Positions 1-28,807 of a DNA stretch of 28,807 nt are shown piece by piece (position 1 is the first letter of the stretch; each line of letters opens with the position of its first letter). The DNA is from Planctomycetota bacterium. Its GTDB lineage: Bacteria; Planctomycetota; UBA8108; UBA1146; JAJFFE01. Location: NCBI GenBank assembly GCA_050246115.1, contig JBFWWP010000018.1:1-28807 (forward strand), in the 5' to 3' direction. Under the pieces are notes generated by a model. It saw only the letters and a program-made list of their open reading frames with translations. It had not been told where the DNA came from and did no database searches. The translations under genes were made by a program, and so were the position numbers.

Positions 1-68
1 CCGGAGCGGCCGAATCTGACCCAAATCGACGGCAAGATGTCGAAGTCATTCTCGGGCGACTCCTTAGG
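1..68. mobile_element. Partial copy (right arm and terminal inverted repeat) of the 190-bp MITE-like element; the rest lies before the window start
   Basis: Positions 1-66 match 23371-23436 at 63/66 nt, including the terminal GAAGT(C/T)ATTCT(C/T)GGGCGACTCCTTA. The TAA stop of the GT2 gene (64-66, minus strand) lies inside this terminal repeat. Confidence 0.5.
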
Positions 69-783
69 CCCGCAGCGAGCGACGGCGCAGGCGCCGCGAC
101 TTGCGTAGCAGCTTCACGTACGAGATGCCGAAGCGCAGGATGCGCGCCTTCGAATAGCCGTGTTTGCGCGGGACGTAGTGAAACGGGATCTCCTCCACCC
201 GGTATCCCGCTGAGTAGGCCTTGACCAAGAGCTCCTGAAGAAAGCTGAAGTCCCGATTCTCCGTCGCGATCGAACGCAGCACGTTCGCGTGATAGAGACG
301 AAACCCACTCGAGAGGTCGGCGATCGGCATGTCGAGAAACCATGCGAAGACACGATTGAGAATACGGCTCAACAGCAGTCGCGAGAGCGGCATGGTGGCG
401 CGCCCCCCGGCGACGTAGCGTGAGGCGATCAGGATCTCCGCCCGATCCCGATGGCGATACAGCGTTCCCAGGATCTGGGGTGGATGCGACAAGTCCGAAT
501 CGAGGGTGACGACGAAGCGACCGCGTGTCTGCGCGAAAGCCTCCGTGAGCGCAGCGCCATATCCGGGTTGCGTCTGCAAGATCACCCGCGCCCCGGAAGC
601 GGTGGCGCGCGCCGCAGTCTGATCGTGCGAGCCACCGTCGACGACCAAAATCTCGTGCGCGAGGCCCAGTTGCTCGCAGACCTCACGGACCTCCGCTACG
701 ACCGGCCCTACGTTCGCCTCTTCATCGAAGGTGGGAATCACCACGGAGAGATCGAGGGGCTCGGCGAGTGCCGAGGATTCCAT
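64..783 (-). CDS. GT2-family glycosyltransferase (polyprenyl-phosphate / dolichyl-phosphate sugar transferase-like)
   Basis: ORF 64..846 contains LSVVIPTFDEEANV, VVDGGSHDQT and TLDSDLSHPP, which are the GT2 DxD-type motifs. I prefer the ATG at 781-783 (MESSALAEPLDLSVVIP) over the ATG at 846; the start is uncertain. Confidence 0.8.
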   Translation of the reverse strand: MESSALAEPLDLSVVIPTFDEEANVGPVVAEVREVCEQLGLAHEILVVDGGSHDQTAARATASGARVILQTQPGYGAALTEAFAQTRGRFVVTLDSDLSHPPQILGTLYRHRDRAEILIASRYVAGGRATMPLSRLLLSRILNRVFAWFLDMPIADLSSGFRLYHANVLRSIATENRDFSFLQELLVKAYSAGYRVEEIPFHYVPRKHGYSKARILRFGISYVKLLRKSRRLRRRSLRA

Positions 784-972
784 GGCCAACGACTCGGCGT
801 CCAACGAATCTCGACTCTGGCCGGAGGCGCGGGAGACCGGGTGCATGAGGTCGCCTGACTCGCAGAAGCTCGACGTCCCGATGGAACAGAGGGCGGGACG
901 CGTGCGATCCTACCGAGGAAGCCGCGTCGTGTCAGGCGTGTTCGAACCCGACACCGGATTCGGGGCGCTGCT

Positions 973-1008
973 TTCTTGGAGGGGCCTTTCGAAAGCCCCC
1001 TCCAAGAA
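973..1008. repeat. 36-bp near-perfect palindrome (17 of 18 arm positions pair, centred on TTTCGAAA), a possible hairpin terminator or operator
   Basis: Read directly: TTTCTTGGAGGGGCCTTTCGAAAGCCCCCTCCAAGAA. It lies about 100 nt downstream of the minus-strand ABC ATPase stop, in the 270-nt gap before the GT2 gene. There is no U-tract on either side. Confidence 0.5.
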
Positions 1009-13618: not shown

Positions 13619-13626
13619 CGAACGGG

Positions 13627-14865
13627 TCAGCGTTCTGCGAGAACGCGCGCCGGAGCTAGCTTCGCGATGCGACGCGCGGGGATCAGGTTGGTCAGTGCGC
13701 CCAACGCGGCGACCAGGACGCCAGTGCCCCACAAAGCGACCGCGGGCAGGTGCGACTTCCACGACAGGGCTGGCTCGACGAGGGCGTGGAGAAGCCAGGT
13801 GGCGAGGGCGTAGCCGAGCGGCAACGCGAGTAAGGCGAGTAGGGTGCCCTCGGCGACGAGCGGCAGCACGACTGCCGCGCGCGTTGCACCCTCGACGCGT
13901 CGGATGGCGATCTCGGGGTAGCGTTCCTCGATCGCCAGGGTCGCGATGGTGCTGTTGAGGAGCAGCATCACGAACAGGTTGACGATCCAGAAGAAATTCG
14001 CGAGGGAGCTGAAGCGGTCGACCATCTCAATGAGAAACTCGGCCCAGTGCTTCTGTACGTGGAAGAACGGTTCGACGCCTCGGGTCTTCAGGAACTCGCG
14101 AGTGCGATCGGCGATCGAGTCCACGGCATCGACGCTTGGCGCCTGCACGATGACGCCAGACGGAGCCTCGTCCGTCAGGTGAAGATAGATGTTCTTGAAC
14201 TCGAGTCGCCGCGCTGAGATCGACCGTGCCATCGCCTGCGAATCGAACATGCCGAGTTGCTGCCGCAAGGAGATCGGGTCGCGCATCACACCGACCACGC
14301 GGGCTCGGAACTTGACCCCACCGCGGGCAGCGTCGAATTCCTGCCCCACCATGCGCTCCGGGTTGGTATCCAGTTCGCGCGCAAAGGCCTCGTCGAGAAC
14401 CACGGGAGTGATCCCGTCGGTCGTTCGGTCGCCGTCTTCCAGGAAGCGACCCGCGAGCATGCCGCCGGCGAGCACGTTCGCGAACTGCGGCGTGGTGATC
14501 ATGTAGGTCGGGGACCGCTTCGCGCGAAACAGCTCCAGCACCCCAGCGAGCTCCATCTTGAACGGAATGACCGCGCGCACCGCCGACCCCAGCTCTGCGC
14601 GCAGAGAAGCCACATCCTCGCGATCGAGCTTGCGTCCGCTCCCGTCGCCGATCTTCACCCAACCAACCTGGAGCGGGTTCAAGCACACGACGCAGTCGAT
14701 GCCAAGACTGCGGAGATCCTTCGAGATGGCGCGACGTCCCCCTTCGACGACCGCGATGGTCATGAGCACAGAGGCGAAACCGGTGGCAAAAGTGGCGAGG
14801 ATCAACAGCGATCGCACGCGCTGCCGCGTCAGGGCCAAGACCACATCCTGCAGCAGCGGACTCAC
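13627..14865 (-). CDS. ABC transporter permease, FtsX-like (MacB/LolC/LolE/DevC family), second of a tandem pair
   Basis: It has an N-terminal TM helix (VRSLLILATFATGFASVLMTIAVVEGG), a large periplasmic domain and a C-terminal FtsX-type 3-TM region (FFWIVNLFVMLLLNSTIATLAIEERYPEIAIRRVEGA...). The start GTG at 14863-14865 overlaps the upstream gene's TGA stop (GTGA) and is preceded by GGAGG at a 5-nt spacing. The upstream 314 aa of the ORF track entry are arginine-rich junk. Confidence 0.8.
   Translation of the reverse strand: MSPLLQDVVLALTRQRVRSLLILATFATGFASVLMTIAVVEGGRRAISKDLRSLGIDCVVCLNPLQVGWVKIGDGSGRKLDREDVASLRAELGSAVRAVIPFKMELAGVLELFRAKRSPTYMITTPQFANVLAGGMLAGRFLEDGDRTTDGITPVVLDEAFARELDTNPERMVGQEFDAARGGVKFRARVVGVMRDPISLRQQLGMFDSQAMARSISARRLEFKNIYLHLTDEAPSGVIVQAPSVDAVDSIADRTREFLKTRGVEPFFHVQKHWAEFLIEMVDRFSSLANFFWIVNLFVMLLLNSTIATLAIEERYPEIAIRRVEGATRAAVVLPLVAEGTLLALLALPLGYALATWLLHALVEPALSWKSHLPAVALWGTGVLVAALGALTNLIPARRIAKLAPARVLAER
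13631..13647. terminator. Hairpin GCGTTCTGCGAGAACGC (7-bp stem, 3-nt loop) at the convergent junction of the POT gene (+) and the FtsX permease gene (-)
   Basis: Read directly. It lies 13 nt after the POT TGA stop and inside the last codons of the convergent permease gene. There is no U-tract. Confidence 0.3.
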
Positions 14866-16202
14866 CCCGCCCTCCGGAGCAAACTCATGGGATCGTGCTT
14901 CGACGCCCGCCACGCGGGATAGGCCGATGCGACCACGGCACCGACGGTGAGCACGACGCCCGCCTGAATCGTGTCGGACCAGGGGAGCGTCGCCGCGACC
15001 GCGACGTTGGGGTCGAGCGCCACGCGCAGCTCGGCGAGCCCCATGCCGCAAGCCAAACCGACCGCGAACCCCACGATCGCGAGGAGCACCCCCTCGCACA
15101 CGAACTGCGTGAAGATGTCGAGGCGCCGGGCTCCCTCGGCGCGGCGCAGGGCGATCTCCCGGCGGCGCTGCCAGCCGGAGAGCAGCAGCAAGTTCGCGAG
15201 CACCAGCAAGCCCATGGTGACGAAGAGGCAGAAGAAGACCTCGTGCAACACCAGGTACCCCTGCATCTCCGGCGCGGTCATGATCGGCCACACCGCGTTG
15301 GTGTAGAGCAGAGGAGAACGGCCGCGCTCCACCAGCAGCTTCTCGGCTTGCGCCGCGCACACCCCGACAAGGGTCGGCTCGACCCGGATGAACAGCCAGT
15401 CGAGGCGGTCGCCCGGCACGGCCGAGCGCGGGAGGTAAACGCCCAAGCCGGTCGAGCGCCACGGGGCGTCGGCGGGCGCGATGCCCACTGCGCGGAGCAA
15501 GGTCGACACGAGTTTCGAAAAGCGGGCGTCGTCGCGGACGCCCATGGCATCGGCGTCGTCGCGCTCGTCCTCGATGACACCCACGACGTGGAGCATGCGC
15601 GCACCCGCGACCGACGCCTCGGCAGGGATGAGCGCAGGCAGGTCGGCGGGTCCCGTCGGCGCCAGCGCCATTCGCCGGCCGACGACGCCCGACGGATCGA
15701 CTCCGACCCCCAGGAGGTGCTCGACGAGCCCCAACTCGAGCGCGACCTCGGTGACCGGATCCGCCCCGGCCTCGGCCGCCGGGGTAGCACTCGGGTAACG
15801 GCCACAAAGTGCCTTCTTACCGCGGGTTGAGGAGATCTCGTCGTCGCATCCGAGGAGCCAAACGCGCGGGTCCAGTGCCTCGCCGACGACGAGGCTCGCG
15901 GGAGCGACTCGGAGGCCGGAGACCCTGGCGTCGGGGCCCAGCGCGGCGGCGAGACTGGGCAAGTCGGCCTCGATGGGGAAAACCGCCCCCCCCGGGTCAA
16001 CGCCGATTTGGACGAGGTCGGTGCCGATTTCGCGGGCCCGCTCCACGGCCGCGGCGCGTGTGCCGCCGATGACCGCCGCCGGCACGATCGCCAGCGCCAC
16101 CGCCCAGATCATCCCCTGGCTGACCAGGAGCGTCCGGAGCGGGTGCGCGGCGATCTCCCGGACCGCGATGGCAAGGTTCGCCTTCAGCGCCGTGTAGGAC
16201 AT
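14862..16202 (-). CDS. ABC transporter permease, FtsX-like (MacB/LolC/LolE/DevC family), first of a tandem pair
   Basis: The ATG at 16200-16202 gives MSYTALKANLAIAVREIAAHPLRTLLVSQGMIWAVALAIVPAAVIGG, a typical FtsX-type N-terminus. The C-terminal region EIALRRAEGARRLDIFTQFVCEGVLLAIVGFAVGLACG... is the FtsX domain. Confidence 0.8.
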   Translation of the reverse strand: MSYTALKANLAIAVREIAAHPLRTLLVSQGMIWAVALAIVPAAVIGGTRAAAVERAREIGTDLVQIGVDPGGAVFPIEADLPSLAAALGPDARVSGLRVAPASLVVGEALDPRVWLLGCDDEISSTRGKKALCGRYPSATPAAEAGADPVTEVALELGLVEHLLGVGVDPSGVVGRRMALAPTGPADLPALIPAEASVAGARMLHVVGVIEDERDDADAMGVRDDARFSKLVSTLLRAVGIAPADAPWRSTGLGVYLPRSAVPGDRLDWLFIRVEPTLVGVCAAQAEKLLVERGRSPLLYTNAVWPIMTAPEMQGYLVLHEVFFCLFVTMGLLVLANLLLLSGWQRRREIALRRAEGARRLDIFTQFVCEGVLLAIVGFAVGLACGMGLAELRVALDPNVAVAATLPWSDTIQAGVVLTVGAVVASAYPAWRASKHDPMSLLRRAG

Positions 16203-16588
16203 GCTCGAAAAACCCCTTTCCAACTCGATGCGGCTTCCCTTTAATGGGGCGTTCCGCTGGGCCCGCGCGAGGCCGGGAGTCGCGAAACGTCCACCGGAAC
16301 GAAGGGGTTCCGCGCCCGCGGGGAGCTGAACCGGTCGGTCCTCCGCGATCCACCGAGCGTCCGGGCAAGCTCGGGGTGCCGCTCGCGCTCGACGCGCTCG
16401 CGGCCGTGGTTTCGCGTCGTGGCAGTAGGCGCAGACGCTTGTACCGCCGGGGGGGATAGTACCCTCGAGTACGGCGATTCGGCCTCCGCGAATTGGCACT
16501 GCGAACGGACGACCCCCGCGAGTCGACACATCCCGGGGCACGGTCGAGACAACGTCACGCGTAACCGTTCATTTGGACAGGCTTCATC

Positions 16589-17098
16589 ATGACTGCGAAG
16601 ACTATGCACGTCGAACGCTTCGGTCTCCCGTCTTGCGGAACCGGCCGCGGGACGCGCTTCGGGTTGGCCCTACCCGGGTTGGCCCTACTGTTGGGCTGGG
16701 GCCTCGCCAGCGGTTGTTCGACTCCGAGAAACCCGGCCGAGAACGAAGTGATCGAGGTATCGCACAACACGCAGTACAACGACCTCCCGGTGCCGTTCGG
16801 CTTCGACTTCGATCAGCGCGAGTCGTGGGCCTACCGCGAGTTCGAGGAAGCCGCAATGCCGTTTCGGTCCTGCTCTCAGGTCTACTGGGGAGACCAGCCG
16901 ATCCGCCACTTGGCGACTTGGTACGAATCGCAAATGGGCCAGTACGGCTGGCATCACGAGCAGACGATCGAAGGCAAGAGCATCCAGCTGATCTTCACCA
17001 AGGGCATCGAGAGGTCCGAAATCGACCTGGTGAGAACGATCGACCGTGGCGGCCGCGACCCCATCACCAAGCTCACCTGCCGAATCGTTGCGAACTGA
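16589..17098 (+). CDS. Hypothetical lipoprotein
   Basis: The signal peptide with lipobox is LALPGLALLLGWGLASGCSTP. The mature part is a soluble protein rich in W, Y and Q. No recognisable family. Confidence 0.55.
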   Translation: MTAKTMHVERFGLPSCGTGRGTRFGLALPGLALLLGWGLASGCSTPRNPAENEVIEVSHNTQYNDLPVPFGFDFDQRESWAYREFEEAAMPFRSCSQVYWGDQPIRHLATWYESQMGQYGWHHEQTIEGKSIQLIFTKGIERSEIDLVRTIDRGGRDPITKLTCRIVAN

Positions 17099-17168
17099 GT
17101 CTGGCGAGACGTCTCGTAAGAACAAGATACCGGCGTGTCCGGGCTACGAACAGGAAGACCAACCGCTC

Positions 17169-17771
17169 ATGTCGAAGGTGAAGAAGAACGCCCCGCCAAC
17201 CAAGCACGAGACCGCTCACCTCGAGGACACGATCACGCAAGTGTCGGACCGCGTGGCGGTGATTGCCAAGCGCTACTGGGTGCCGATCGTGGTCGCCTGT
17301 GTCGCGGTGGTCGGCCTCCTGGGAATCTCCTCGATCTATCAGTGGTTCGCAAAGACTCGCCAGGAAGAGTTGGCCTCGGAGATCTACAACGCTTTCGATG
17401 GACCGAACGACGAGGCCAACCTCGACGCCAAGCGCGGCAAACTCGAGAAGGTGTGGAGCGAGATCCAGGGCGAGACCATCGAGTCGGTGTTTGCCGTGCG
17501 ATATGCCAGGTGGTTGTGGCAGGACGCGAAAAACCCGCAGCGCGCGGTGCAGGTCCTCGATGAGGCGACGAAGCGACACCCCGAGGACAAGGTCTTGGAG
17601 TTCTTCCGCAGCCGCTACGCCCAAACGCTGAAGGCCAGCGAGGGCTTCGTCATTCCGACGCCGCCCCCGCCGCCGGAGCCGATCGTCCCGACCCCGATCC
17701 CGACTCCGACGCCCGGCACCCTCCCCGAGGCGCCGCCGACCGTGGATCCGCCGGCCCCGAGCGACGGATAG
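17169..17771 (+). CDS. Hypothetical single-pass membrane protein with a proline-rich C-terminal tail
   Basis: It starts at the ATG at 17169 (MSKVKKNAPPTKHE...). A single TM helix (WVPIVVACVAVVGLLGISSIYQWF) is followed by a helical TPR-like region and a C-terminal tail IPTPPPPPEPIVPTPIPTPTPGTLPEAPPTVDPPAPSDG. It sits immediately upstream of rluD. Confidence 0.5.
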   Translation: MSKVKKNAPPTKHETAHLEDTITQVSDRVAVIAKRYWVPIVVACVAVVGLLGISSIYQWFAKTRQEELASEIYNAFDGPNDEANLDAKRGKLEKVWSEIQGETIESVFAVRYARWLWQDAKNPQRAVQVLDEATKRHPEDKVLEFFRSRYAQTLKASEGFVIPTPPPPPEPIVPTPIPTPTPGTLPEAPPTVDPPAPSDG

Positions 17772-17800
17772 GAACGGTCCCGATCGAGCGTTCACCGGGG

Positions 17801-18772
17801 ATGGAAGCCGAGACGTTCCACTCCCTCACCGTCGGCGCAGACGCTGCGGGGGAACGAGTCGACCATTGGTTGCACCTGCAGTTCACCGACCTGTCTCGTT
17901 CCGCGCTCAAGCGCTACATCGAGGAGGGCCGCGTGCTGGTGAACGGCGCGCCTCCGAAACCGAGCACGACGCTGCGCGCCGGCAGCGAGGTCTCGGTTCG
18001 CATACCCGCGCCGCCGCCGCTGCGTCCGATCGCGCAGGAGATCCCCCTTGCGGTCATCTTCGAGGACGACGCAATCCTCGTGATCAACAAGGGACCCGAC
18101 ATGGTGGTGCACCCGTCCCCGGGACGCTCGCCACAAGGAACGTTGGTCAACGCGCTACTCGGGCGGCCGGGCCAGCTTTCGTCCGAAGGCGGGGACTATC
18201 GGCCCGGGATCGTCCACCGACTGGATCGAGAGACCTCTGGCCTCATCGTCGTCGCCCGCACCGACGCCGCCCACCGCAATCTCGCGGCGCAGTTCAAAGC
18301 GCGCGCGGTGGCGAAGGAGTATCTGGCGTTGGCTCACGAGGTTCCCAACTCAGCCGAGGGACTCGTGGACCTGCCCGTCGGGCGCTCCCCCACGCAGCGA
18401 AAGAAGATGACCGTCCGGCACGATGAACAGGGCAAGGAGTCTCAAACCCGCTGGCGGGTCGAGCGCACGCTGGCGCGGTTCACGTGGTTTCGCTTGTTTC
18501 CTCGCACGGGAAGAACCCACCAGATTCGCGTTCACCTGAAGAGCCTCGGGCACCCCATCGTGTGCGACGCGCTCTACGGACGCGAAAAGAAGATCACGCT
18601 GTCGGAGATCCATGGCCGCACTCCCAAGGCCGGCGAGGAAGCGGTTCTCGATCACCATGCGCTGCACGCTGCGCGCTTGTCCTTCGCTCACCCGGTCCAC
18701 GGCCAGCCACTCACGTTCGAAGCCCCCTTGCCGCGAGAACTCCAGCGCCTGTGGGATCTCGCGGCCGACTGA
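17801..18772 (+). CDS. rluD: 23S rRNA pseudouridine synthase, RluD/RluA family
   Basis: The S4-like N-terminal region is ERVDHWLHLQFTDLSRSALKRYIEEGRVLVNG, and the catalytic motif HRLDRETSGLIVVARTD is present. Length and layout are typical for RluD. Confidence 0.9.
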   Translation: MEAETFHSLTVGADAAGERVDHWLHLQFTDLSRSALKRYIEEGRVLVNGAPPKPSTTLRAGSEVSVRIPAPPPLRPIAQEIPLAVIFEDDAILVINKGPDMVVHPSPGRSPQGTLVNALLGRPGQLSSEGGDYRPGIVHRLDRETSGLIVVARTDAAHRNLAAQFKARAVAKEYLALAHEVPNSAEGLVDLPVGRSPTQRKKMTVRHDEQGKESQTRWRVERTLARFTWFRLFPRTGRTHQIRVHLKSLGHPIVCDALYGREKKITLSEIHGRTPKAGEEAVLDHHALHAARLSFAHPVHGQPLTFEAPLPRELQRLWDLAAD

Positions 18773-18934
18773 TTCGGGTCACCGCCCCCCAGAGAACGCC
18801 TGGTGATTTGGAAAGTCATTCACGCGCGAACGCTTACGACTCGAATGAGCGGCGGCGAGACTTTCTCTTCAAATCCTTCGAGTTGCCGGCCGATCAACCG
18901 TGGGGGGACACGAATGGGCGAGGAGGCCTCGGGG

Positions 18935-19117
18935 ATGGGCTCGTCGGACAAGCACACCTGCCAGCGTTGCTTTCATCAGGAACAGATACCCACCTACCAG
19001 TACGTGAAGTTCGACGACCGCATCCAGTACCTGTGCCGACAGTGTTGGGAGGGGTTTCGTCGCTGGTTCCATTGGGGACAGAACGACGTGCGCGAGCGCC
19101 AGCTGGAGCTGTTCTAG
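18935..19117 (+). CDS. Small (about 60 aa) CxxC...CxxC zinc-ribbon-like protein
   Basis: MGSSDKHTCQRCFHQEQIPTYQYVKFDDRIQYLCRQCWEGFRRWFHWGQ... has two CxxC pairs 22 aa apart and a Trp-rich tail. A strong SD (GAGGAGG) lies 8 nt upstream of the ATG at 18935. The longer ORF 18803..19117 has no SD. Confidence 0.45.
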   Translation: MGSSDKHTCQRCFHQEQIPTYQYVKFDDRIQYLCRQCWEGFRRWFHWGQNDVRERQLELF

Positions 19118-19122
19118 TCTCA

Positions 19123-19146
19123 GTTCGAGCGCGTCCCGCGCTCGAA
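19123..19146 (+). terminator. Perfect 10-bp GC-rich hairpin (TTCGAGCGCG-tcc-CGCGCTCGAA) 6 nt after the stop of the small zinc-ribbon gene
   Basis: Read directly. Its position at a gene end fits an intrinsic terminator, but there is no clear U-tract, which is common in high-GC genomes. Confidence 0.4.
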
Positions 19147-19375
19147 TCGGGGTGATTCGTCTCCGAGGAGCTTTCGCAAAGCCCCCTCGTGGCGGCGGCA
19201 CAGCCGCCTCCACTTCACCCACGAACGCCCGCCTTCGGCTTCGTTCGGTATCCGTCAGGCGCGAACCGGGGTTGCTCGCGAATGCGCGCCCGCGGGGCGG
19301 CCCTTGGGCTTGGCCGCCGGGTGCTTCCTCGTCCACGGGCTCAAGCTTGCCCGCTCGGCGCCCGATTCATCGTTC

Positions 19376-21103
19376 ATGAACATGCCGATAAAGCGCGGGA
19401 AGCTCCGAGTCGTCACCGTCTTTCTAGCAGGGACCATCTGCGCCCTCGCGAACGCCGAGGAACTCCCGCACTTCGCGACGCGCGAGCTCTCGATCCGCAC
19501 CGCGATCACGAGCGTCGGTGCGGCGCCCGTCGCGAGCTACCAGCTCTGGGTGACCACCGACGGCGGTCGCAGTTGGGCTCGTGGTGGCGCTCCGTACCCC
19601 GGGCCCGCACCGGTGCCATTCGTCGCCCCCGGGGATGGTCGCTACGGGTTCCTCGTCGCGGCCTTCGACAGCGCCGGCCTCGGTTCGCGCCCTCCGCAGC
19701 CGGGCCAGACCCCAGACTTCGAGTGCGTGGTCGACACCGAAGCTCCGGCGCTCGAAGTCCTACGGCCCGAGACGTCGGATGCGATCTATGCCGGTGGACA
19801 GGTGATCTGCCAGTGGCGCGCTCTGGACGCCAGCCTCGGCCCCAAACCGGTTCGTATCGAGTACCGTCGCCGCCCCGACCCCGTGTGGCAGCCGATTCTG
19901 CCGGAGAACGACTTCATCGCCGAGGGATCCCAAGCCTGGTGGCCGCCGTTCGTCGACGGCGAGGTCGATCTCCGCATCGTGGCTACCGACCGAGCGGGGA
20001 ACCGGTCCGAGTGGGAATTGCCGGCCCCGCTCCGGGTCATCCCGTTCGACGGTTTCCGCGGTTCGCGAGTCCTCGCTGCGACGCCCTACTCATCCTTTCA
20101 CTCGGTTCCCATCTTCTACCGCATCCAGGAGTACACGCTCGTGGAACTCGAGGAGGTGGAGCTCTGGTATCGTCACGAGACCAGTTCCTGGGCACGCGCG
20201 AGCGACCCGGACAAGGTGTCGCCGTACCGTTTCGAAGCTCGACTCGATGGCAACTACTTCTTCTACCTTCGAGCCACGAATCGAAATGGCGTCGCCACGC
20301 GCGAACCACCGGGCGCGGATACCCCACCCGACCTACGGGTCATTGTCGACACGCACTCCCCCGAGGGGGCACTCCGTGTCGGCAACGGCGAGCGCAAGGT
20401 CTTCCACCGAGCAGGCGATCCGCTGGAGATCGCGTGGCAACTCGCCGACGCCAACCTGCGGGCGAGCGCGTGCCGGCTGGAGTACAGCCTCGACTCGGGT
20501 CACGATTGGCGTAGCCTGGCGAACGACATCCACCTCAGTGGCGGTAACGGCACCTTCCTCTGGCGCGCGCCGCTGCTCGAGATCGGGGAACTTCGAGTGC
20601 GACTGGTGGCACGCGACTACGCTGGCAATCAGACCTACGTGGAGTCGGACTCGATCCTGCACCTGATCAACCCGACGGTCGACCCGAAGGCGGCGGCGCA
20701 GGACTTCTATCAACGAGGGCTGTTTCTCTCGCGACTCGGGGATCGTGCGTCGCTGATGTCGGCACTCGAGAACTTCGATGTCGCCCTCACCTACGATCCC
20801 GAGCATGCGCTTGCCTGGCACGATCGCGGCGCCATCCGCATGCTCCTGAATCTGCCGCTCGCGGCGATCGCCGACTTCGAGCGCGCGCGGGAGCTCCGAC
20901 CGCGGGATCTCGATCTGACGTTCTCGCTGATCCGAGCACACTTGCACGTGGCCCGCAGTGGCAAGGACCCACAGGTCGACCACACGGCGATGGCGCGCAC
21001 GCTGTTCGAGTCCGTCTCGCGCGTGGACATCTACAAAGAGATCAACTACCGTGAACTCCTCAACGAGTATCAGCTCCTCGAGCAAGGTCTCGGATCGAAG
21101 TGA
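19376..21103 (+). CDS. Secreted protein with BNR/Asp-box repeats and C-terminal TPR repeats
   Basis: It starts at MNMPIKRGKLRVVTVFLAGTICALANAEE, a signal peptide with an AXA site. The BNR-like motifs are WVTTDGGRSWAR and SLDSGHDWRSL. The C-terminal helical repeats (DFYQRGLFLSRLGDRASLMSALENFDVALTYDPEHALAWHDRGAI...) are TPR-like. Confidence 0.7.
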   Translation: MNMPIKRGKLRVVTVFLAGTICALANAEELPHFATRELSIRTAITSVGAAPVASYQLWVTTDGGRSWARGGAPYPGPAPVPFVAPGDGRYGFLVAAFDSAGLGSRPPQPGQTPDFECVVDTEAPALEVLRPETSDAIYAGGQVICQWRALDASLGPKPVRIEYRRRPDPVWQPILPENDFIAEGSQAWWPPFVDGEVDLRIVATDRAGNRSEWELPAPLRVIPFDGFRGSRVLAATPYSSFHSVPIFYRIQEYTLVELEEVELWYRHETSSWARASDPDKVSPYRFEARLDGNYFFYLRATNRNGVATREPPGADTPPDLRVIVDTHSPEGALRVGNGERKVFHRAGDPLEIAWQLADANLRASACRLEYSLDSGHDWRSLANDIHLSGGNGTFLWRAPLLEIGELRVRLVARDYAGNQTYVESDSILHLINPTVDPKAAAQDFYQRGLFLSRLGDRASLMSALENFDVALTYDPEHALAWHDRGAIRMLLNLPLAAIADFERARELRPRDLDLTFSLIRAHLHVARSGKDPQVDHTAMARTLFESVSRVDIYKEINYRELLNEYQLLEQGLGSK

Positions 21104-21275
21104 CCGGGGCGCAGACGGTCTTGTCCCCTCCTCAGGACCACGAGCACAACGGGCACGCAAGTTGACACGGGAATCCGACTCACCGACACTGAGCGGGACT
21201 CGAGTCGCGCGCCGATCGGGCGCCCGGTTTGGATCGCGAAAGAAGACCCGTTGACGACGAGGCGGAGGTTCCCCG

Positions 21276-22466
21276 GTGAGCCGATGGCAACGAGCCCTGA
21301 CTCCTGGCAGCCGCCTGACGCCACTGCGTAGGGCCATCGCGTGGGGTCTCGCGCTCGCTTGGACCTTCGGTGGGAACGGGTGCGCGACTCCGAGGGATGC
21401 CACGGGCGAACCGCAACCCGTGCGCCTGACCGACCTCCACCCGGACCCGCCACCGAATCGCATGGACTGGGAGTTCTACGACAACCTCGGTGTCGGTGGG
21501 CCGGTGGCCGCAACAACCCCCGCCAGTTCGTCGCGAGACCCGGCAGACACGAACCCTGGTTCGCTCGCGGGTGAGCCCCTGGAGAAGATCTCGCCCGTGT
21601 CGGTGACCCGTGGCGTGCCCGAACCGCCGACTGCGTCTTCATCGTCGGCGTCTCCATCGTCGGCGGGGCTCGTCCAGGTGAGTCGAGGAAACCCGGAAGC
21701 GAGCGAAGGGCGCTCGGGATCGGCTCCGTCGGGTCCGACCACCGAGGGGGATCAGCTCATCGCCATGCGCGATCGACTGCTCGAGCAGCTCCGGCGACTG
21801 CAGGACCGATCGGAACACGAACTCACCGACGCGCAACGACTGACGAAGCATGACCTCGAAACTCGCCTGATGTCCTTTCACTTCCTGATCCGGAAGGCCG
21901 ACGGAGCCGCCCTACAAACGCTCCTGGAGTCCGTGGAGACACCCGTCTCGCCCGGCATGGTCCATAGCCTGCTGCGGGCCGCGCTCTACCACGACGTGGG
22001 CAGTGAGAACCTCCGGGATCGTGTGATCGCCTCCCTGCGTGCGGGATCGGCGGACAGGCCGTTCGCGCTGGTCTCGACCGAGATCTGCACTTCGGTGACC
22101 CACGACGGAGGCCGTACCCGCTACCCCGAGTATGTCTTCAAGCCGAACCAGCGGATCCTGCTCTTCGGTGAGCTCCTCAATCTGTCGTCGCGGCCCGACG
22201 GCGACGCGTTCGTCAGCGAATTGGAGATCGAGGTGCTGCTCCTCGACGCCGGTGGGCGACAAAGAGATCGGCGACGACTGGGCCTCGACGGGTCCATGGT
22301 CGATCGCCAACGGGTTCCGCGGGAGAAGAACTTCTTCTCCGAGTACTACCAACTGCCCTATCGTTTGACGCCGGGGTCCTTCCGACTCGTCATCATCGCG
22401 ACCGACCGCAACGCTGCGTCAGGGGCTACCGCCCAACAGGAACTTTCGATTCGCATTCAGAATTGA
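21276..22466 (+). CDS. Hypothetical lipoprotein or secreted protein with a Ser/Pro-rich linker
   Basis: The GTG at 21276 is preceded by GGAGG at a 7-nt spacing. The N-terminus LRRAIAWGLALAWTFGGNGCATP has a signal peptide with a Cys. A low-complexity S/P-rich segment is followed by a globular C-terminal domain. No recognisable family. Confidence 0.6.
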   Translation: MSRWQRALTPGSRLTPLRRAIAWGLALAWTFGGNGCATPRDATGEPQPVRLTDLHPDPPPNRMDWEFYDNLGVGGPVAATTPASSSRDPADTNPGSLAGEPLEKISPVSVTRGVPEPPTASSSSASPSSAGLVQVSRGNPEASEGRSGSAPSGPTTEGDQLIAMRDRLLEQLRRLQDRSEHELTDAQRLTKHDLETRLMSFHFLIRKADGAALQTLLESVETPVSPGMVHSLLRAALYHDVGSENLRDRVIASLRAGSADRPFALVSTEICTSVTHDGGRTRYPEYVFKPNQRILLFGELLNLSSRPDGDAFVSELEIEVLLLDAGGRQRDRRRLGLDGSMVDRQRVPREKNFFSEYYQLPYRLTPGSFRLVIIATDRNAASGATAQQELSIRIQN

Positions 22467-22545
22467 GCGCAGCGTCCGCTGCGAGCGGCCACCGGACGCG
22501 GCTCACGGGTGGGCCGAGCCGCTGCGAGCCGAGGAGCAAACCGCC

Positions 22546-23178
22546 GTGCAGTCCCCAGGAATCCGGATCACGGCCGGCGAGCTTCGCGGCAAGACCATCG
22601 CGGTCCCACCGGGCAACGAAGTGCGGCCCATGCGATCGCGGGTACGGGAGTCGCTCTTCTCGATCCTCGGGGATCGAGTTCGGGGGGCTCGGGTGCTCGA
22701 TGTCTTCGCCGGCTCTGGGTCGCTGAGCATCGAAGCGCTGTCGCGCGGGGCGAGCACCGCGGTCCTGGTCGAGACCGCACCCAAGGTTCTCGAGGTTCTG
22801 CGCCAGAACCTGGCGCGGCTGAATCTATCGGCGCGCACGACCGTCGTTACGGAGGACGCCTACACCTCTCCGAGCCTCGAAGCCGCACGAGGCCAACTTG
22901 GCAGGGAAGCCCCCGGTTTCGATCTGATCGTGATCGATCCGCCCTTTCCCCAGTACCCCACTGGCGCCCCTTGGGCGCTCGCGTTCCGCCTCGCCGTCGA
23001 GCTCCTCCGCCCGCGCGGCGCCCTGGCTCTCGAGTATCCGGCGGGAATCGACCCGCCCACGGAACCAGACGCAATCACCCTTGTGGCCCGCAAGAAGTAC
23101 GGCGACACCCAGCTCGGTGTCTGGGAGGAGGGTCGCAACGCGCCTCTCGGACTCAGTCCGGACGGGCGACGGCAGTGA
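22546..23178 (+). CDS. rsmD: 16S rRNA (guanine966-N2)-methyltransferase RsmD
   Basis: ITAGELRGKTIAVPPGNEVRPMRSRVRESLFSIL matches the RsmD N-terminus. VLDVFAGSGSLSIEALSRGA is the SAM-binding motif I, and VIDPPF is the DPPF/Y motif. Confidence 0.85.
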   Translation: MQSPGIRITAGELRGKTIAVPPGNEVRPMRSRVRESLFSILGDRVRGARVLDVFAGSGSLSIEALSRGASTAVLVETAPKVLEVLRQNLARLNLSARTTVVTEDAYTSPSLEAARGQLGREAPGFDLIVIDPPFPQYPTGAPWALAFRLAVELLRPRGALALEYPAGIDPPTEPDAITLVARKKYGDTQLGVWEEGRNAPLGLSPDGRRQ

Positions 23179-23248
23179 GTTGCCTGGGGGCCACGACCGA
23201 CGCCGAGCCACGAGGGAGCTGCTCGCAAGCTCCCTCGTGATCACCGAG

Positions 23249-23438
23249 CGCATAGGAGTCGCCCAAGAATAACTTCACCCTCTTGCTCGTCGCTTCGGGC
23301 CATCTTCGACCGATCCGAAAACCCCGAAATCCTCACCGGAACGAAGGCTACGCCTCCGGTTCCGAGCTTTCCGGATCGGCCGAATCTGACCCAAATCGAC
23401 GGCAAGATGTCGAAGTTATTCTTGGGCGACTCCTTATG
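23249..23438. mobile_element. MITE-like non-autonomous element of about 190 bp with 26-27-bp terminal inverted repeats and an internal long hairpin, in the convergent intergenic region between rsmD and the flotillin gene
   Basis: The left terminal repeat at 23251-23276 is CATAGGAGTCGCCCAAGAATAACTTC. The right terminal repeat, as the reverse complement of 23412-23438, is CATAAGGAGTCGCCCAAGAATAACTTC, which is identical apart from a single-A indel. The interior contains the complementary segments TCTTCGACCGATCCG / CGGATCGGCCGAA and CGGAACGAAGG..CCTCCGGTTCCG. No ORF lies inside. A TA dinucleotide abuts both ends. The flotillin TAA stop (23434-23436) lies at the right junction. Confidence 0.6.
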
Positions 23439-25071
23439 CCTTGGCCTTGCCGGGCGTCGGGTTTGACTTGGCGGCGGGGGGCCCTTCGGGAGCCTCGGTG
23501 GCTGCGGCCACGTTGGCCACCTCGGCCTTGGTCCCGTCCTTTTCGACCAGCTTGCCGAAGAACTCCGGCATCTCGACGCCGCCGATGTCCTTCATGATCT
23601 GCATCACGGGCGGCAGCATGCCGCCGAGACTACGAACGAACCCCGCGGCGCCGCCGGCTCCATTGCCGTTCCCGCCCCCATCCCAGCATACGACCTTGTC
23701 GAACTTCACGTTCGCGATCGCCGACGCAGCGGTCTCGGCAAGCTTGTCGAGGTGCTCGAGCATCAGCATCTGGAAGGCGGGCTGGGCGCCGCCGCAGCTG
23801 TCGACGATGAGGCGCAGGCCTTCGGCCTTGGCACGAAGCTGTTCGAACTCACCGCGGGCCTGTGCCTCGAGGCTGAGGAACACCGCCTTCGCCTCCGCTT
23901 CCGCGTGGATGCGTCGTCTCTCGGCAGCGGCCTCTGCGTCGACGACGACCTTCGCCTTCTCGGCGAGGGCCTGCGCCTCGAGTAGCGCGCGCTGCTCCGC
24001 CTCGACCTTCCGAGACTCGGCCTCGGCGGCCTTGGCCTCGGCCAGGTACTGCGCCTGGCGCACGCCCGCTTCGGCCTCCCGCTTGCGAGTCTCGGAGAGC
24101 TGGTAGGCTTCCGCCTCGCGTACCCGCAGTTCGGCATTGGTCGCGGCGATCTTGGCCTTGGCTGCGTTCTCGCCCTCGACCGCCTCTGCGTCCGCCGTGG
24201 CGATCGCGATCCGCTTGGCCCGATCGGCCGCCTTGACCTCGGCCTCGGTTTGAAACTGTGCGCGCTGCTCACCGATCTGCTTGTCACGGTTGAACTCGGC
24301 GATGCTCAACGCCTGGTTCTTGAGGGCGTTGGCGGTACCCACCGCGCGCTCCTTGTTCGCCTCCGCAACCTGAATCTCCTCCTCGCGCCGAGCCTTGGCC
24401 ACCCCGATCGCGCCATGGCGACGCTGCTCGGCCACGTCGATCTCGGCCTGCTGGATCGCCTCCGAGGCGGCTTTCCTACCGATGGCCTCGATGTAGCCCG
24501 ACTCGTCCATGATGTCGGTGATGTTCACGTTGAGAAGCACTAGACCGATCTTGTTCAGCTCCGGTTCGAGGCTGCTTTGGATGCTCTGCAGGAACATGTC
24601 TCGATCGCGGTTGATGGCCTCGATGCGCATGCCGGCGATGACCTGGCGTAGCTGCCCGAAGATGATGTCGCGGGCTTGCTGACCGATCTCGGTCGTGGTC
24701 AGTCCGAGCAGACGCTCGGCCGCATTGTGCATGATCGTCTCCTGGGTCCCAATGGCGACGGTGAACACGCTGGGCACGTTGATGCGAATGTTCTCGGCGG
24801 AGAGCGCGCCCGTGAGTGGGATCTCGATCTGGAGCGGATCGAGGCTCATGAAGCTGTAGTTCTGGATGAGCGGCAGGACGAAAGTGCCGCCTCCGTGCAG
24901 ACACTTGGCGGAGCGGTCGGCACCGACCTTTCCGTACACGACGAGCACTCGGTTCGATGGACAGCGCTTGTAGCGCTTCGCCAAGAACACCAGGAAGCCG
25001 AGCGCGGTGAGCACGACCGCGACGATCAGCACCAACAACAAACTGTTCGGTTCGTCGAACCACCCCAACAT
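23434..25071 (-). CDS. Flotillin / band-7 (SPFH-domain) protein, FloT/YqiK-like
   Basis: It has an N-terminal TM helix (LLLVLIVAVVLTALGFLVFLAKRY) and an SPFH domain. It also has a very long Ala/Glu-rich coiled-coil region (EAEVKAADRAKRIAIATADAEAVEGENAAKAKIAATNAELRVREAEAYQ...) that is diagnostic of flotillins. Confidence 0.9.
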   Translation of the reverse strand: MLGWFDEPNSLLLVLIVAVVLTALGFLVFLAKRYKRCPSNRVLVVYGKVGADRSAKCLHGGGTFVLPLIQNYSFMSLDPLQIEIPLTGALSAENIRINVPSVFTVAIGTQETIMHNAAERLLGLTTTEIGQQARDIIFGQLRQVIAGMRIEAINRDRDMFLQSIQSSLEPELNKIGLVLLNVNITDIMDESGYIEAIGRKAASEAIQQAEIDVAEQRRHGAIGVAKARREEEIQVAEANKERAVGTANALKNQALSIAEFNRDKQIGEQRAQFQTEAEVKAADRAKRIAIATADAEAVEGENAAKAKIAATNAELRVREAEAYQLSETRKREAEAGVRQAQYLAEAKAAEAESRKVEAEQRALLEAQALAEKAKVVVDAEAAAERRRIHAEAEAKAVFLSLEAQARGEFEQLRAKAEGLRLIVDSCGGAQPAFQMLMLEHLDKLAETAASAIANVKFDKVVCWDGGGNGNGAGGAAGFVRSLGGMLPPVMQIMKDIGGVEMPEFFGKLVEKDGTKAEVANVAAATEAPEGPPAAKSNPTPGKAKA

Positions 25072-25213
25072 CTTAGGTCTCCGTCCTTGTGTATCCCCTC
25101 AGCGGGCTACGCGGGCAATCGCGCCGGCGCGGAGGGCACCCCCATCGTGAGTCTCGGGTCGTCGACCTCGAGGCGTTCAGCGTGTCCTCTGTGAGATGAT
25201 CCAGGCGGCCCGT

Positions 25214-25765
25214 TCAAACGGACGCGACCTCGAGCGTGTCCGGGGCGACAATGGCGATGACCTGTACCTTCGCACCGGTGTTGAGTTCGGCACCCGTGGT
25301 CACTGCTCGAGCCTCTACGGTGCGATTCTGGATCTCGACCGTCACCTTCCCCGCGCCCTGATTCTGTTGCGGGATCTTGAGATAGACCGTCGCGGTCTTG
25401 CCGACCGCATTCGCCAGGCTCACGTTCCCCCGCGCTTGCAGGCGCTGGAACGACTTCATGATGATGCCGACGACGTAGAATGCGACCAGACCGGCGCCCA
25501 AGGATCCGACGACCGTGGAGCCGGGGAACGGTCGCCAGTCGAGCGCGTTCAGCAACAAACCGCCGAGTCCGAAGAAGGTGAGGAACGCGACGATGGCCTT
25601 CAACGACAGGTAGTCGAAAAACTCGTGGCCGCCGATGCCGGCCTCATCGAGCTGGAAGTCCGCGAAACCACCGTCACCGTGATCGAAACCGAGCGACATC
25701 AGGACGATCTGCACGACCATGATGACGCCGCCCACGATCGCACAGACTTGGAAGACCGTATCCAA
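25214..25765 (-). CDS. NfeD-family membrane protein (YqiJ/YuaF-like), the flotillin operon partner
   Basis: It has two TM segments (VFQVCAIVGGVIMVVQIVLMSLG and AIVAFLTFFGLGGLLLNAL) and a C-terminal OB-fold-like region (KTATVYLKIPQQNQGAGKVTVEIQNRTVEARAVT). The start TTG at 25763-25765 is preceded by a strong SD (GAGAGGAG) at an 8-nt spacing. The N-terminal extension of the ORF track entry (GTG at 25840) has no SD. Confidence 0.7.
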   Translation of the reverse strand: MDTVFQVCAIVGGVIMVVQIVLMSLGFDHGDGGFADFQLDEAGIGGHEFFDYLSLKAIVAFLTFFGLGGLLLNALDWRPFPGSTVVGSLGAGLVAFYVVGIIMKSFQRLQARGNVSLANAVGKTATVYLKIPQQNQGAGKVTVEIQNRTVEARAVTTGAELNTGAKVQVIAIVAPDTLEVASV

Positions 25766-26165
25766 GAGCCCGACTCCTCTCGTTAGCGCTGCGCCGTCGA
25801 TCCGAGTGCCTGATTGCAGTCGCCTGGGCACACGCAGCACCCTGCAGCCACGCGACGCCGGCAGATCGTTGGCCCTCGCGGCCGCGCTGGCTCCGTGAGT
25901 GCGCTCGACCGTCGGTCAGCGGGTGTTCGTCGTGTGCCCTTCTCGCAGCAACCCGCCGACCAACCGCAATCCGCGCGGACAGAATCTGGGTAGCCAGGGC
26001 ACAAAATCGAAGACCCGCACCAGCGGACCCGCTTTGCGGCCCCTACCCGACCCCTCGCGGCTGGCGGATTGCGCCAAGTCCCCGTGAACCGGTGGCGCGG
26101 CGCACCGGCGGTCGCCTCTCGGCCTGCGGCCCCCGCGAGCGCATCGACAAGCCCGCTCCTTGGGC

Positions 26166-27206
26166 CTAGTAGCTGAGGTCGACGGTGTGGGCGGTCTCCA
26201 AGAACGCGGTCAGGAGAGCGACCGTGGCTTCCAAGTCGCGCCCGTCGATCGTCTCGACCACCGAGTGGACGTACCGCGTCGGCACCGACAACGTGATCGC
26301 TGGGACGGCGTCCCCACCGCGCTGGATGCCGGCAGCATCGGTGCCGCCCCGCGGGAGGATTTCGAGCTGGTGCGGAATCTCGTGCTTCTTCGCGAGGTCT
26401 CGAAAGTGTCGGACCAGCTTCGGGTTCGAGATGGCCGAAGAGTCGAGGATCTTGATCGCAACGCCTTGCCCGAGGGTGGAGATGTACTCTTCGGGCTTGG
26501 CCGAGGGCAGGTCGCACGCCAGGGTAACGTCAATGGCGACGCCCATGTCCGGCTGAATCCGGTGGGCGGCAGTGGTCGCACCCCGCACGCCGATCTCCTC
26601 CTGGGAGGTAGCCACGGCGTAGATCGACACTTCCCGACTCTTCACGCGCTTTAGGGTCTCGATGAGCGTGTAGATGGAAACGCGATTGTCCATGGACTTG
26701 CCCGACCAACGGTTCCCAACCTGAATACAGTCTTGATAGAGGGTCACCGGGTCGCCGATGTCGACGAGCTTCTTCACTTCCGCAGGCGGCAGTCCAATGT
26801 CGACGAACAAGTCCTTGATCTCGGGGAGCTTCTTGCGTTCGTCGTCGGTCATGATGTGAATCGGCTTCGAACCGATGACACCGATGATGTCTTGCTGCTG
26901 GGCGTTGATGACGCGCACGCGCTTGGCAATCAGCGTCTTCGGATCGAACCCCCCGAGAGGCTGCAAGCGCAGGAAACCTTTGTCGTCGATGTGCGTGACG
27001 ACGAAACCGATCTCGTCCATGTGCCCGGCGAGCATGACCTTGCGCGGGTGATCCCCGCGCCCTTCGCGAATCGCGATGACGTTGCCCAAGCCGTCGGTCT
27101 CGATGCGATCGACGTACGGTTCGATCTCGCTGCGGAAGATGGCGCGAATCCGGTCTTCGAAACCAGGAGCACCCGACGCCTCGCACAGCCGTTTGAGAAG
27201 TTCCAT
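26166..27206 (-). CDS. M42-family metallo-aminopeptidase (FrvX/CelM/glutamyl aminopeptidase-like)
   Basis: MELLKRLCEASGAPGFEDRIRAIFRSEIEPYVDRIETDGLGNVIAI, MLAGHMDEIGFVVTHIDDKGFLRLQPLGG and the downstream metal-binding regions are typical of M42. The ATG at 27204-27206 is preceded by GAGG at a 7-nt spacing. An in-frame 89-aa extension up to the ATG at 27473 is possible, but its SD spacing is poor. Confidence 0.8.
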   Translation of the reverse strand: MELLKRLCEASGAPGFEDRIRAIFRSEIEPYVDRIETDGLGNVIAIREGRGDHPRKVMLAGHMDEIGFVVTHIDDKGFLRLQPLGGFDPKTLIAKRVRVINAQQQDIIGVIGSKPIHIMTDDERKKLPEIKDLFVDIGLPPAEVKKLVDIGDPVTLYQDCIQVGNRWSGKSMDNRVSIYTLIETLKRVKSREVSIYAVATSQEEIGVRGATTAAHRIQPDMGVAIDVTLACDLPSAKPEEYISTLGQGVAIKILDSSAISNPKLVRHFRDLAKKHEIPHQLEILPRGGTDAAGIQRGGDAVPAITLSVPTRYVHSVVETIDGRDLEATVALLTAFLETAHTVDLSY

Positions 27207-27491
27207 CCGCTCGCCTCTGCTCCAAGGGCCCCGGTACACCACCACGTCACCCGGCCCGAAGGCACGGGAATCGCCGCGGCGCACGGAGTGGTTCGCTGGT
27301 TCACCGATCTCGACTCTGACAATCGCGCCATTGTGACCCGCGACGGCCTGCAGGGCAACGGCCTCTTGCCCGGGCAAAGTCAGGAACGAAGCCCCGACCT
27401 GGCTCGGTGTAGCGCAGCCTGGGCCTTCTCGGTCGAGGTCAGAACCACGGTGCTCCAGGCCCGTGATCGTCATCCTCCGGGGTTCGATCCG

Positions 27492-27851
27492 TCAAAGCCC
27501 GCCGGCCCCGGGGGGTTCGCCATCGCGGCCCTGCAGTCGGCTCAAGTTCAACGATTGCTCGTGAGTCAGGCGACCCGCGGCAACATCCAACGAGTAGAGC
27601 TGCATGACGAGGTGGTGCTGACGGGAGAACGGGTAGGGCCGCGGATGACGGAGGATCGTGAACCGAACCCGGCGGAGTTGGCCGTCGGCGACCTCGAAGT
27701 CGACGACGTCGACACGACCCCGTTGCTCGGGTCGCAGCGACGTTCCGCGCAGGCCGTCGGGGTGGTCGAACTGGGCGCGGACGAGGGCACGGGCGCGGGC
27801 CGCGACTCGGTGGCGGCGCCACCTCGCCTGACACGTCCGCCAGAGGCTCAT
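27492..27851 (-). CDS. Hypothetical 119-aa protein translationally coupled to the rhomboid gene
   Basis: Its ATG at 27849-27851 overlaps the rhomboid TGA stop (ATGA), and it fills an otherwise empty gap. The sequence VVDFEVADGQLRRVRFTILRHPRPYPFSRQHHLVMQLYSL is not recognisable. Arginine-rich content at the N-terminus lowers confidence. Confidence 0.35.
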   Translation of the reverse strand: MSLWRTCQARWRRHRVAARARALVRAQFDHPDGLRGTSLRPEQRGRVDVVDFEVADGQLRRVRFTILRHPRPYPFSRQHHLVMQLYSLDVAAGRLTHEQSLNLSRLQGRDGEPPGAGGL

Positions 27852-28774
27852 GGTCGCCGCGACTTCTTGCTCATGGTGATCAGGAACTCGCGCTCGCTGG
27901 GCGTGAGGGAGTCCAATCCGCCCTCACTGACCTTTCGCAGTAGAGCGTCGAGCCGCGCTTCTTCCTCGACGGACCGCCCTGGATCCCGCGGGCTGGGCGC
28001 AAACTCCCAGGAAGTTGGGTTGGCCGAGCGCCGACGACGGCGCCCGCTGCGGCCCGATCGTAGGCCCAACCAGCCGAGCCAGCCTCGCATCCAGGCCCCG
28101 TAGAAGAGGGCACCGAATCCGGCGCCAGCCAAGTGCGCGCCGTGCGCAACATGCATTTCTCCCGGTGGAGGAGGTTCGGCGCGCAGTAGGTCGGTGACGA
28201 GACCCACCCCGTCCATCGCCACGGAAATCGCAGCAACGAGCCAGGCGGCCAGCGGAATCACGGCGAACAGCAGGATCGTGGTGCGCGGCTCCCGAAGAAC
28301 CGAAACCAACAACACCGCTGTGACGGCGCCAGAGGCCCCGAGGAGCGAACTGTCCCACAGGACGAGTTGCAGCGCAGCCGCCACGAACGACGCGAAGGCG
28401 CCCGACACGAGGTAGAAGACCCAGAAGGCACGAGCCCCCAGCCAGTCCTCCACCCGGCGTCCGAAGAAGTGAAGCACCATCAAGTTCATGGCCACGTGGA
28501 ACAAGTCTCTGTGCGAGAACACGCTGGTCAGCAGGGTCCAAACGTACCCTTCGCTCAGCCGCGCCCAGCTGCAACCGAAGTGCACGGCGAGGAAGCGCTC
28601 CGTGTCGCCCGCGACCTGCCAGAGCAGGAACACGGCCAGATTGATCGCGATGATCAGGGTTACCGCCGACCAGTTGGCGGGATTGATCTGTCCCCCCGGA
28701 CTGGGAGACCGCATGTAGTCGCGGTTGAAGATACCCACGGCGTCGCACTCCTCGGATTCGTCTTCGTTTCGCAC
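27848..28774 (-). CDS. Rhomboid-family intramembrane serine protease
   Basis: It has six or more TM helices. The catalytic GASGAV (GxSG) motif and the His in AHGAHLAGAGFG are present. The cytoplasmic C-terminal extension is LDALLRKVSEGGLDSLTPSEREFL. The start is uncertain: GTG at 28774 or ATG at 28714. Confidence 0.8.
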   Translation of the reverse strand: MRNEDESEECDAVGIFNRDYMRSPSPGGQINPANWSAVTLIIAINLAVFLLWQVAGDTERFLAVHFGCSWARLSEGYVWTLLTSVFSHRDLFHVAMNLMVLHFFGRRVEDWLGARAFWVFYLVSGAFASFVAAALQLVLWDSSLLGASGAVTAVLLVSVLREPRTTILLFAVIPLAAWLVAAISVAMDGVGLVTDLLRAEPPPPGEMHVAHGAHLAGAGFGALFYGAWMRGWLGWLGLRSGRSGRRRRRSANPTSWEFAPSPRDPGRSVEEEARLDALLRKVSEGGLDSLTPSEREFLITMSKKSRRP

Positions 28775-28807
28775 TTCAGCCGGCGGTCACTCACACTGGC
28801 CCGCGCC

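Follow-up and report, generated by a model that had tools for sequence, protein, structure and literature searches.

Correia, ERIC and RUP elements are flanked by TA, and the eukaryotic PIF/Harbinger elements, which are related to the IS5 family, and Tourist MITEs duplicate TAA or TTA. The catalogue of MITE families is poor for Planctomycetota and for uncultured lineages in general. The definition of a MITE includes a length of 70–300 bp, terminal repeats of 15–30 bp and transcripts that form hairpins, and known bacterial MITEs are reported to affect mRNA stability (PMC3733652). Within the IS5 family, a preference for TNA targets is documented for the IS1031 subgroup (PMC1676026). Here we describe a short palindromic element in a 28,807-nt stretch of DNA from a Planctomycetota bacterium (the window; contig JBFWWP010000018.1, assembly GCA_050246115.1), which is probably a copy of a lineage-restricted MITE or foldback-type palindromic family, mobilised in trans by a DDE transposase at TNA and later constrained as a hairpin. 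The family is new, but it is an ordinary kind of element and not a new kind of thing. The evidence base is small: this genome contributes five loci, and a relative adds two or three.

At 99.7% identity, the window matches contig JBFWPE010000004.1 (198,769 bp), part of assembly GCA_050250155.1, which NCBI labels a Planctomycetota MAG. Over 15.4 kb (window 13452–28807 against the contig segment L009), 30 substitutions and 3 indels separate the window from this assembly, and the window therefore represents another strain or assembly. Among the indels are 3 nt at 16404 and, at ~21630, a gapped insertion of 15 nt; 3 of the substitutions fall within 23252–23374, two of them inside the element and one in its left 3-bp flank. 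The G+C content of the genome is 67%. We took the census of copies in 54 kb of JBFWPE010000004.1, namely the segments L009, L010 and L013, which were reached via the window proteins and one flank protein. Two relatives were picked via orthologues of the flanking proteins: rel1 (Logan SRR23004066/78/79), with protein identities of 91% for Dus and 77% for the methyltransferase, and rel2 (ERR12725708), whose Dus protein is 75% identical.

Since the copies share sequence only between GGAG and CTCC, we place the element proper at 23255–23433. The features of this copy, together with the stop codon that adjoins a half copy at the start of the window, are as follows.

23255..23433, minus strand: full-length copy A, 179 bp (alignment of copies A, B and C with half copy D; folding energies)
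23255..23276, plus strand: left terminal inverted repeat GGAGTCGCCCAAGAATAACTTC, the perfect reverse complement of 23412–23433
23412..23433, minus strand: right terminal inverted repeat, the identical 22 nt (repeat search)
23337..23364, no strand: apex stem-loop at the element centre, CGGAACGAAGGCTACGCCTCCGGTTCCG (sequence and consensus fold), retained in half copy D, which stops just past the apex
23252..23254, no strand: left 3-bp flank, which reads TTA in GCA_050250155.1 but ATA in the window owing to a SNP at 23252 (T in L009, A in the window)
23434..23436, minus strand: right 3-bp flank TTA, which, read on the minus strand, forms the TAA stop codon that closes the flotillin-like gene (ORF 23434..25071, minus strand, stop included)
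64..66, minus strand: TTA flank of half copy D, the TAA stop of the glycosyltransferase gene 64..846, minus strand (ORF and sequence)

Within the window, the 22-nt core GGAGTCGCCCAAGAATAACTTC is present at three places (23255 on the plus strand, 23412 and 42 on the minus strand), where shuffles lead one to expect 0.01 occurrences. Around it, a repeat search delimits inverted-repeat arms of 33 nt at 23254–23286 and 23402–23434 that are 91% complementary, and the 22-bp perfect terminal repeats extend into imperfect arms of ~85 nt. The inverted termini of the element are GGAGTCGCCCAAGAA, and its ends read GGAGTC. A 201-nt region folds as a single long hairpin on either strand, at -107.7 kcal/mol (z -11.0) on the plus strand and -134.9 kcal/mol (z -14.6) on the minus strand. 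The minus strand is thus the better-folding, or strong, strand of copy A, and it runs in the same direction as the flotillin gene.

Copy A lies between an RsmD-family methyltransferase gene (PF03602, 22546–23178, plus strand) and a convergent Band_7/SPFH flotillin-like gene (23434–25071, minus strand). Coding capacity is absent: the element holds mechanical ORFs only, and the copies, at 179–184 bp, fall inside the 70–300 bp range of MITEs. A protein search with the concatenated six-frame translation of the element, aimed at ORFs mis-called over copies, returned no protein relatives. Neither a sigma-70-like promoter nor a T-tract terminator was found in or around the element. Repeat search, ORFs, fold and domains all bear out the earlier note's description of a short non-coding, MITE-like hairpin element between convergent rsmD and flotillin genes. 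Its inverted repeat also stands, but the extent it gave, about 190 bp with 26-bp repeats, has to be reduced to 179 bp and 22 bp, the outer CATA and TTATG being flank by comparison of the copies.

Two other kinds of repeat lie in the same DNA. A second, shorter palindrome, GAGGG(G/A)GC-loop-GC(C/T)CCCTC, is found downstream of genes at window 979–1002, 19160–19193 and 23207–23240 and at L013 9632–9656; one of these stands after the rsmD stop, ahead of copy A. The motif lacks a T tract and is possibly a REP-like repeat, or else the terminator hairpin of the organism. At window 7570–8442, five diverged copies of a 42-nt unit, spaced 132–351 nt, sit inside a coding region which the MAG annotation assigns to an FG-GAP-repeat protein; this is the usual DNA of protein repeats and has no relation to the element.

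Within the 54 kb of JBFWPE010000004.1 the family comprises 3 full copies (93–96% identical), 1 half copy and 1 remnant. Besides copy A they are:

L010 12138–12321: copy B, full, 184 bp, 93.5% identical to A
L010 20179–20357: copy C, full, 179 bp, 95.5% identical to A
L010 10784–10879: half copy D, 96 nt, one arm and the apex; it equals window 1..63 (minus strand) plus 33 nt beyond the window start
L013 ~938–979: remnant E, ~45 nt, one end only

In the terminal 22 nt, each end of a full or half copy has 0–2 mismatches, and that of remnant E has 3. Window 1–70 is 94% identical to window 23371–23440, and D carries the arm equivalent to 23371–23433; its second arm is missing, as the second-arm alignment scores below shuffles. 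All partial copies retain the same end. The further copies and their conserved termini agree with the earlier note's proposal that the element is repeated in the genome, the absence of such copies or of conserved termini being what it would have counted against a mobile unit. The truncated second copy that it saw at the window start is likewise real, not as a mere cut at the window edge but as a genuine half element. Beside remnant E, in intergenic DNA at L013 ~820–903, a 21-nt unit (CGCTCACGCGCAAAAGCCAGT, with variants) also occurs four times in tandem.

In the Logan assemblies of two runs, contigs stop 29–40 nt inside copies B, C and D. Such breaks inside the element ends are what one would see because a k-mer assembler is expected to stop at a genomic repeat. 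The element breaks short-read assemblies at each copy.

We then compared the occupied sites with those of the relatives. Site B, between a 985-aa gene and Dus, is without the element in rel1 and rel2, with flanking sequence still recognisable in rel1, and site D is unoccupied in both. Around these empty sites the neighbouring genes are conserved, as are parts of the flanks; an exact empty site containing a single TNA was not recovered. More distant relatives showed no copy in 20-kb samples (L021, L023, L024).

At site D the glycosyltransferase orthologues of both relatives have ~180 extra C-terminal residues, which in one of them carry methyltransferase domains. The window glycosyltransferase (64–846, minus strand) is cut at ~residue 256 relative to these orthologues and ends exactly at the TAA of D, and the convergent Dus gene (L010 10916–12085) has a 17-aa C-terminal extension. 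Because the glycosyltransferase ends at the TAA of D and Dus is extended by 17 aa, we regard D as an insertion-plus-deletion junction; D itself is a true truncation at the deletion junction. The ~96 nt between D and Dus were considered as an old 3' remnant of the glycosyltransferase gene, a suggestion dropped when BLAST gave no significant similarity; they have no detectable origin.

Two further copies occur in rel1. Copy F (L018 11630–11729) occupies a different site and is 85% identical over one arm and the apex. Its second arm has decayed; since the tail, at 39% identity, is marginally above shuffles (9 of 300), F may represent a full-length copy that has degenerated there. D and F apparently end alike, and a discrete 96-nt mobile unit was considered for this reason; it was rejected, the two endpoints lying ~6 nt apart. 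Copy G (L015 ~99–180) is more diverged and lies upstream of the methyltransferase orthologue, in the place of copy C. That C and G share a place yet G is far more diverged needs re-insertion, gene conversion or unequal decay. In the same relative, a 527-aa ORF labelled glycosyltransferase (L018 10159–11742, minus strand) has an N-terminal extension of ~90 residues that translates through copy F, probably a gene-calling artefact arising from the open frames of the repeat.

The DNA adjoining the copies holds a strong signal. Reading the three bases before GGAG inward from each terminus, we obtained nine flanks from copies A–F:

Copy A: left TTA in GCA_050250155.1 (ATA in the window, through the SNP at 23252), right TAA
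Copy B: left TGA, right TAA
Copy C: left TAC, right ATA
Half copy D: TAA
Remnant E: TGA
Copy F of rel1: TCA

T-N-A stands at 7/9 flanks, compared with 2.2% of trinucleotides in intergenic DNA (P = 9e-11); T at -3 and A at -1 are conserved and the middle base is variable. Read on one strand, copy A in GCA_050250155.1 is TTA-element-TTA, so that its left flank forms with the right flank a perfect 3-bp direct repeat. The same reading gives TGA...TTA for B and TAC...TAT for C, each matching at 2/3 positions. As between a 3-bp duplication and a TNA preference acting at each end, duplication is not proven, because the flank pair is perfect at one of the three full copies and in one strain only.

The earlier note had tentatively taken a TA adjoining both ends for the target duplication of an IS630/Tc1-mariner-type MITE. 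TA does occur within both flanks of copy A and close to both ends of copy C. However, the flush dinucleotides of the nine termini are TA, AA, GA, AA, AC, TA, AA, GA and CA, so that TA is flush at 2/9 termini, or at 3/10 if the window variant ATA of A-left is counted. No copy has a flush TA at both ends, copy B has TGA on one side, and what is conserved is the T at -3 together with the A at -1. The signal is therefore a 3-bp T-N-A, and we consider an IS630-type origin most improbable.

Several of these flanks are stop codons. Copy A and half copy D adjoin the TAA stops listed above, and a 305-aa gene has its TGA stop in the TCA beside remnant E. Stop codons make up ~17% of tolerated TNA sites, and the targeting of stop codons as a property of its own, beyond a TNA preference and intergenic tolerance, was not significant (P = 0.06–0.33). 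Placement at stop codons is what one expects of an element that seeks TNA in a genome of 67% G+C.

For the family that we favour, a MITE moved in trans at TNA, we infer both the duplication mechanism and the transposase family. A DDE transposase encoded elsewhere in the genome would bind the terminal repeats; it probably has the target choice of the IS5 family or PIF-Harbinger, and would insert the unit at TNA with a 3-bp duplication. At 67% G+C, TNA is rare, TAA and TGA stops would be among the tolerated sites, and the duplication would regenerate the stop. Insertion at such stops with regeneration would explain why copies end flush with gene ends.

The two strands of the hairpin are not equivalent. 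The strong strand of all three full copies begins GGAGTCGCCCAAGAATAACTTCGACATCTTGCC and folds at -122 to -127 kcal/mol with 8–9 G:U pairs; for the opposite strand the values are -85 to -98 kcal/mol and 0–1 G:U. Arm-to-arm transitions produce G:U on the strong strand in 8/8 cases and A:C in none. Among copies, stem pairs with a one-sided transition stay paired on the strong strand in 6/6 cases, and only 2 stem pairs are broken, both by transversions. Pair 17/168 (columns of alignment A3) belongs to the terminal repeat and reads A-U in copy A, C-G in B and G-U in C; in copy B both sides have changed, a compensatory double change. The G:U-only transitions and this double change suggest a constraint on a transcribed hairpin.

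The strong strand is also oriented with its neighbourhood. It is the sense strand of the neighbouring genes in 4/4 co-directional contexts (B, C, E, G), and at the convergent sites A and D it matches the strand of the gene whose stop adjoins the copy. It is not one absolute DNA strand, A and D having it on one and B and C on the other. Since the strong strand tracks transcription and not an absolute strand, the asymmetry points to RNA or transcription and not to replication. In small numbers, this is the pattern that one would predict if selection favoured an RNA hairpin within read-through transcripts. Part of the G:U asymmetry could stem from mutation bias associated with transcription (C-to-T and A-to-G on the non-template strand) rather than from RNA selection. 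Beside any mobility, the hairpin seems to matter on one strand, as RNA or as single-stranded DNA.

These data bear on the view that the element is a structured RNA module (such as an sRNA gene family, a processing site or a stabiliser in the 3' UTR) which is selected as such and spread by recombination or duplication. Pairing-preserving variation, one double compensatory change included, and an orientation consistent with the neighbouring transcripts are what such a module would show. The window gave no match in Rfam at gathering thresholds; its best sub-threshold match, to the long-hairpin family Dictyoglomi-1, is a weak likeness in the same direction (28 bits against a gathering score of 150). 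However, no Rfam family scores at threshold, a promoter-like site and a T-tract terminator are lacking, copies adjoin unrelated genes with sharp boundaries and TNA flanks, their sites are empty in relatives, the half and remnant copies decay freely, and a copy in rel1 has lost its second arm. We therefore hold an RNA module of this kind to be quite unlikely. The earlier note, which had weighed a conserved structured RNA as the alternative to a mobile unit, finds support in the lack of an Rfam family, yet some of the variation does preserve pairing, in the G:U-only transitions and in the one double change.

Within the reading of a mobilised MITE, the inserted unit would be read through in the transcript of the neighbouring gene and would form a very stable RNA hairpin there. 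Selection appears to keep the hairpin paired. Its function as RNA we infer, by analogy with bacterial MITEs, to be probably that of a stabiliser or processing site at the 3' end or between cistrons.

We looked for the enzyme and for relatives of the element elsewhere. As the earlier note had observed for the window, no transposase was found, and the gene tables and Pfam scans of every fetched locus contain no transposase domain. Nor did the fetched loci yield a full-length IS with the termini of the element, or a Y1/HUH, RAYT or TIRYT gene. Scans of GTDB genomes and JGI metagenomes with the exact terminal-repeat pattern did not find the element, a plasmid collection held no match to it, and the literature search returned no paper of relevance to the accession, the runs or the terminal sequence. 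Eight loci returned by the GTDB and JGI terminus scans were rejected as not being the element, having single matches of 22–27 nt, several of them in a conserved coding sequence. In JGI contigs L004 (349–374) and L008 (3946–3971), a 26-nt exact match to the terminus (GGAGTCGCCCAAGAATGACTTCGAC) stands beside an unrelated membrane-protein gene and is either a solo end or a chance match. At rel1 L015 10100–10121, 14 nt short of the contig end, a perfect terminus match of 16 nt (GGAGTCGCCCAAGAAC) leads into sequence that is related to neither arm. Another element with the same terminal repeat may end here, conceivably the autonomous partner; the adjoining 860-aa ORF has no Pfam domain.

The chief rival explanation concerns the enzyme: a single-stranded DNA hairpin moved by an HUH tyrosine transposase, in the manner of REPIN/RAYT, TIR repeat/TIRYT or IS200/IS605 miniature-like units. 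One particular strand would fold and be cut beside a short target, the TNA at either end then combining target and cleavage site instead of being a duplication. Such movement would account for a pairing constraint that is specific to one strand, G:T being the most tolerated mismatch in DNA hairpins, for the differing central base in the TNA flanks of copy B, and for partial copies that all keep the same end; moreover, REP/RAYT and TIRYT systems are reported in Planctomycetes (PMC3733652). On the other hand, the element has true terminal inverted repeats with TNA on both sides and a perfect TTA/TTA at copy A, its arms measure ~85 nt instead of 20–40 nt, its ends have no GTAG/CGTC tag, and the fetched loci hold no Y1/HUH gene. 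The strong strand, furthermore, follows local transcription and not one absolute strand, which argues for RNA. Taken together, we judge movement by an HUH enzyme unlikely.

A stronger version of the hairpin constraint would have the copies kept as functional RNA or single-stranded DNA hairpins. The element would then be a 3'-end module delivered by a transposon, which lands on TAA or TGA stops, regenerates them and is afterwards constrained in its pairing; in a variant, it would be a strand-specific DNA hairpin moved by an HUH-type enzyme with a TNA target. The basis for this is the G:U-only transitions, the double change in the terminal repeat and an orientation that always matches neighbouring transcription. 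We find it doubtful though conceivable, and if true, HUH-type movement with a TNA target would be an undescribed combination.

For what is probably a lineage-restricted MITE, moved by a DDE transposase and later constrained as a hairpin, the main points of interest are the pairing-preserving variation and the stop-codon placement; otherwise it is an ordinary example of its class. The element affects MAG contiguity, gene calling and gene content, because it sits on stop codons and marks the truncation of the glycosyltransferase. If the pattern holds genome-wide, the family would offer a small natural data set on the RNA-level selection of bacterial MITE hairpins after insertion.

Finally, we compared the element with described systems. 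Correia/NEMIS of Neisseria, ERIC/YPAL of enterobacteria, RUP of Streptococcus pneumoniae and Nezha of cyanobacteria resemble it in size, in the length of the terminal repeats and in being non-coding; like it, they are dispersed beside coding sequences, and the hairpin of the whole unit ends up in neighbouring transcripts, as that of the element probably does. They differ in that their sequences are unrelated and that the host of the element is a member of the Planctomycetota, and the 3-bp TNA of its flanks contrasts with the TA of Correia, ERIC and RUP. REPIN/RAYT and TIR repeat/TIRYT systems share with it the extragenic palindromes, the long hairpins, the singlets or half units beside doublets and the occurrence in Planctomycetes (PMC3733652). 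However, REP/REPIN units are 20–40 nt long, tagged by GTAG/CGTC and associated with a RAYT (PMC3733652), whereas the element has arms of ~85 nt, is untagged and has TNA at both flanks. With the IS5/IS1031 and PIF/Harbinger/Tourist groups it has in common the 3-bp T-N-A target, mostly TAA or TTA, and a terminal repeat that starts with GG; it departs from IS5/Harbinger in showing a perfect duplication at one copy only and in the lack of such a transposase in the fetched DNA.
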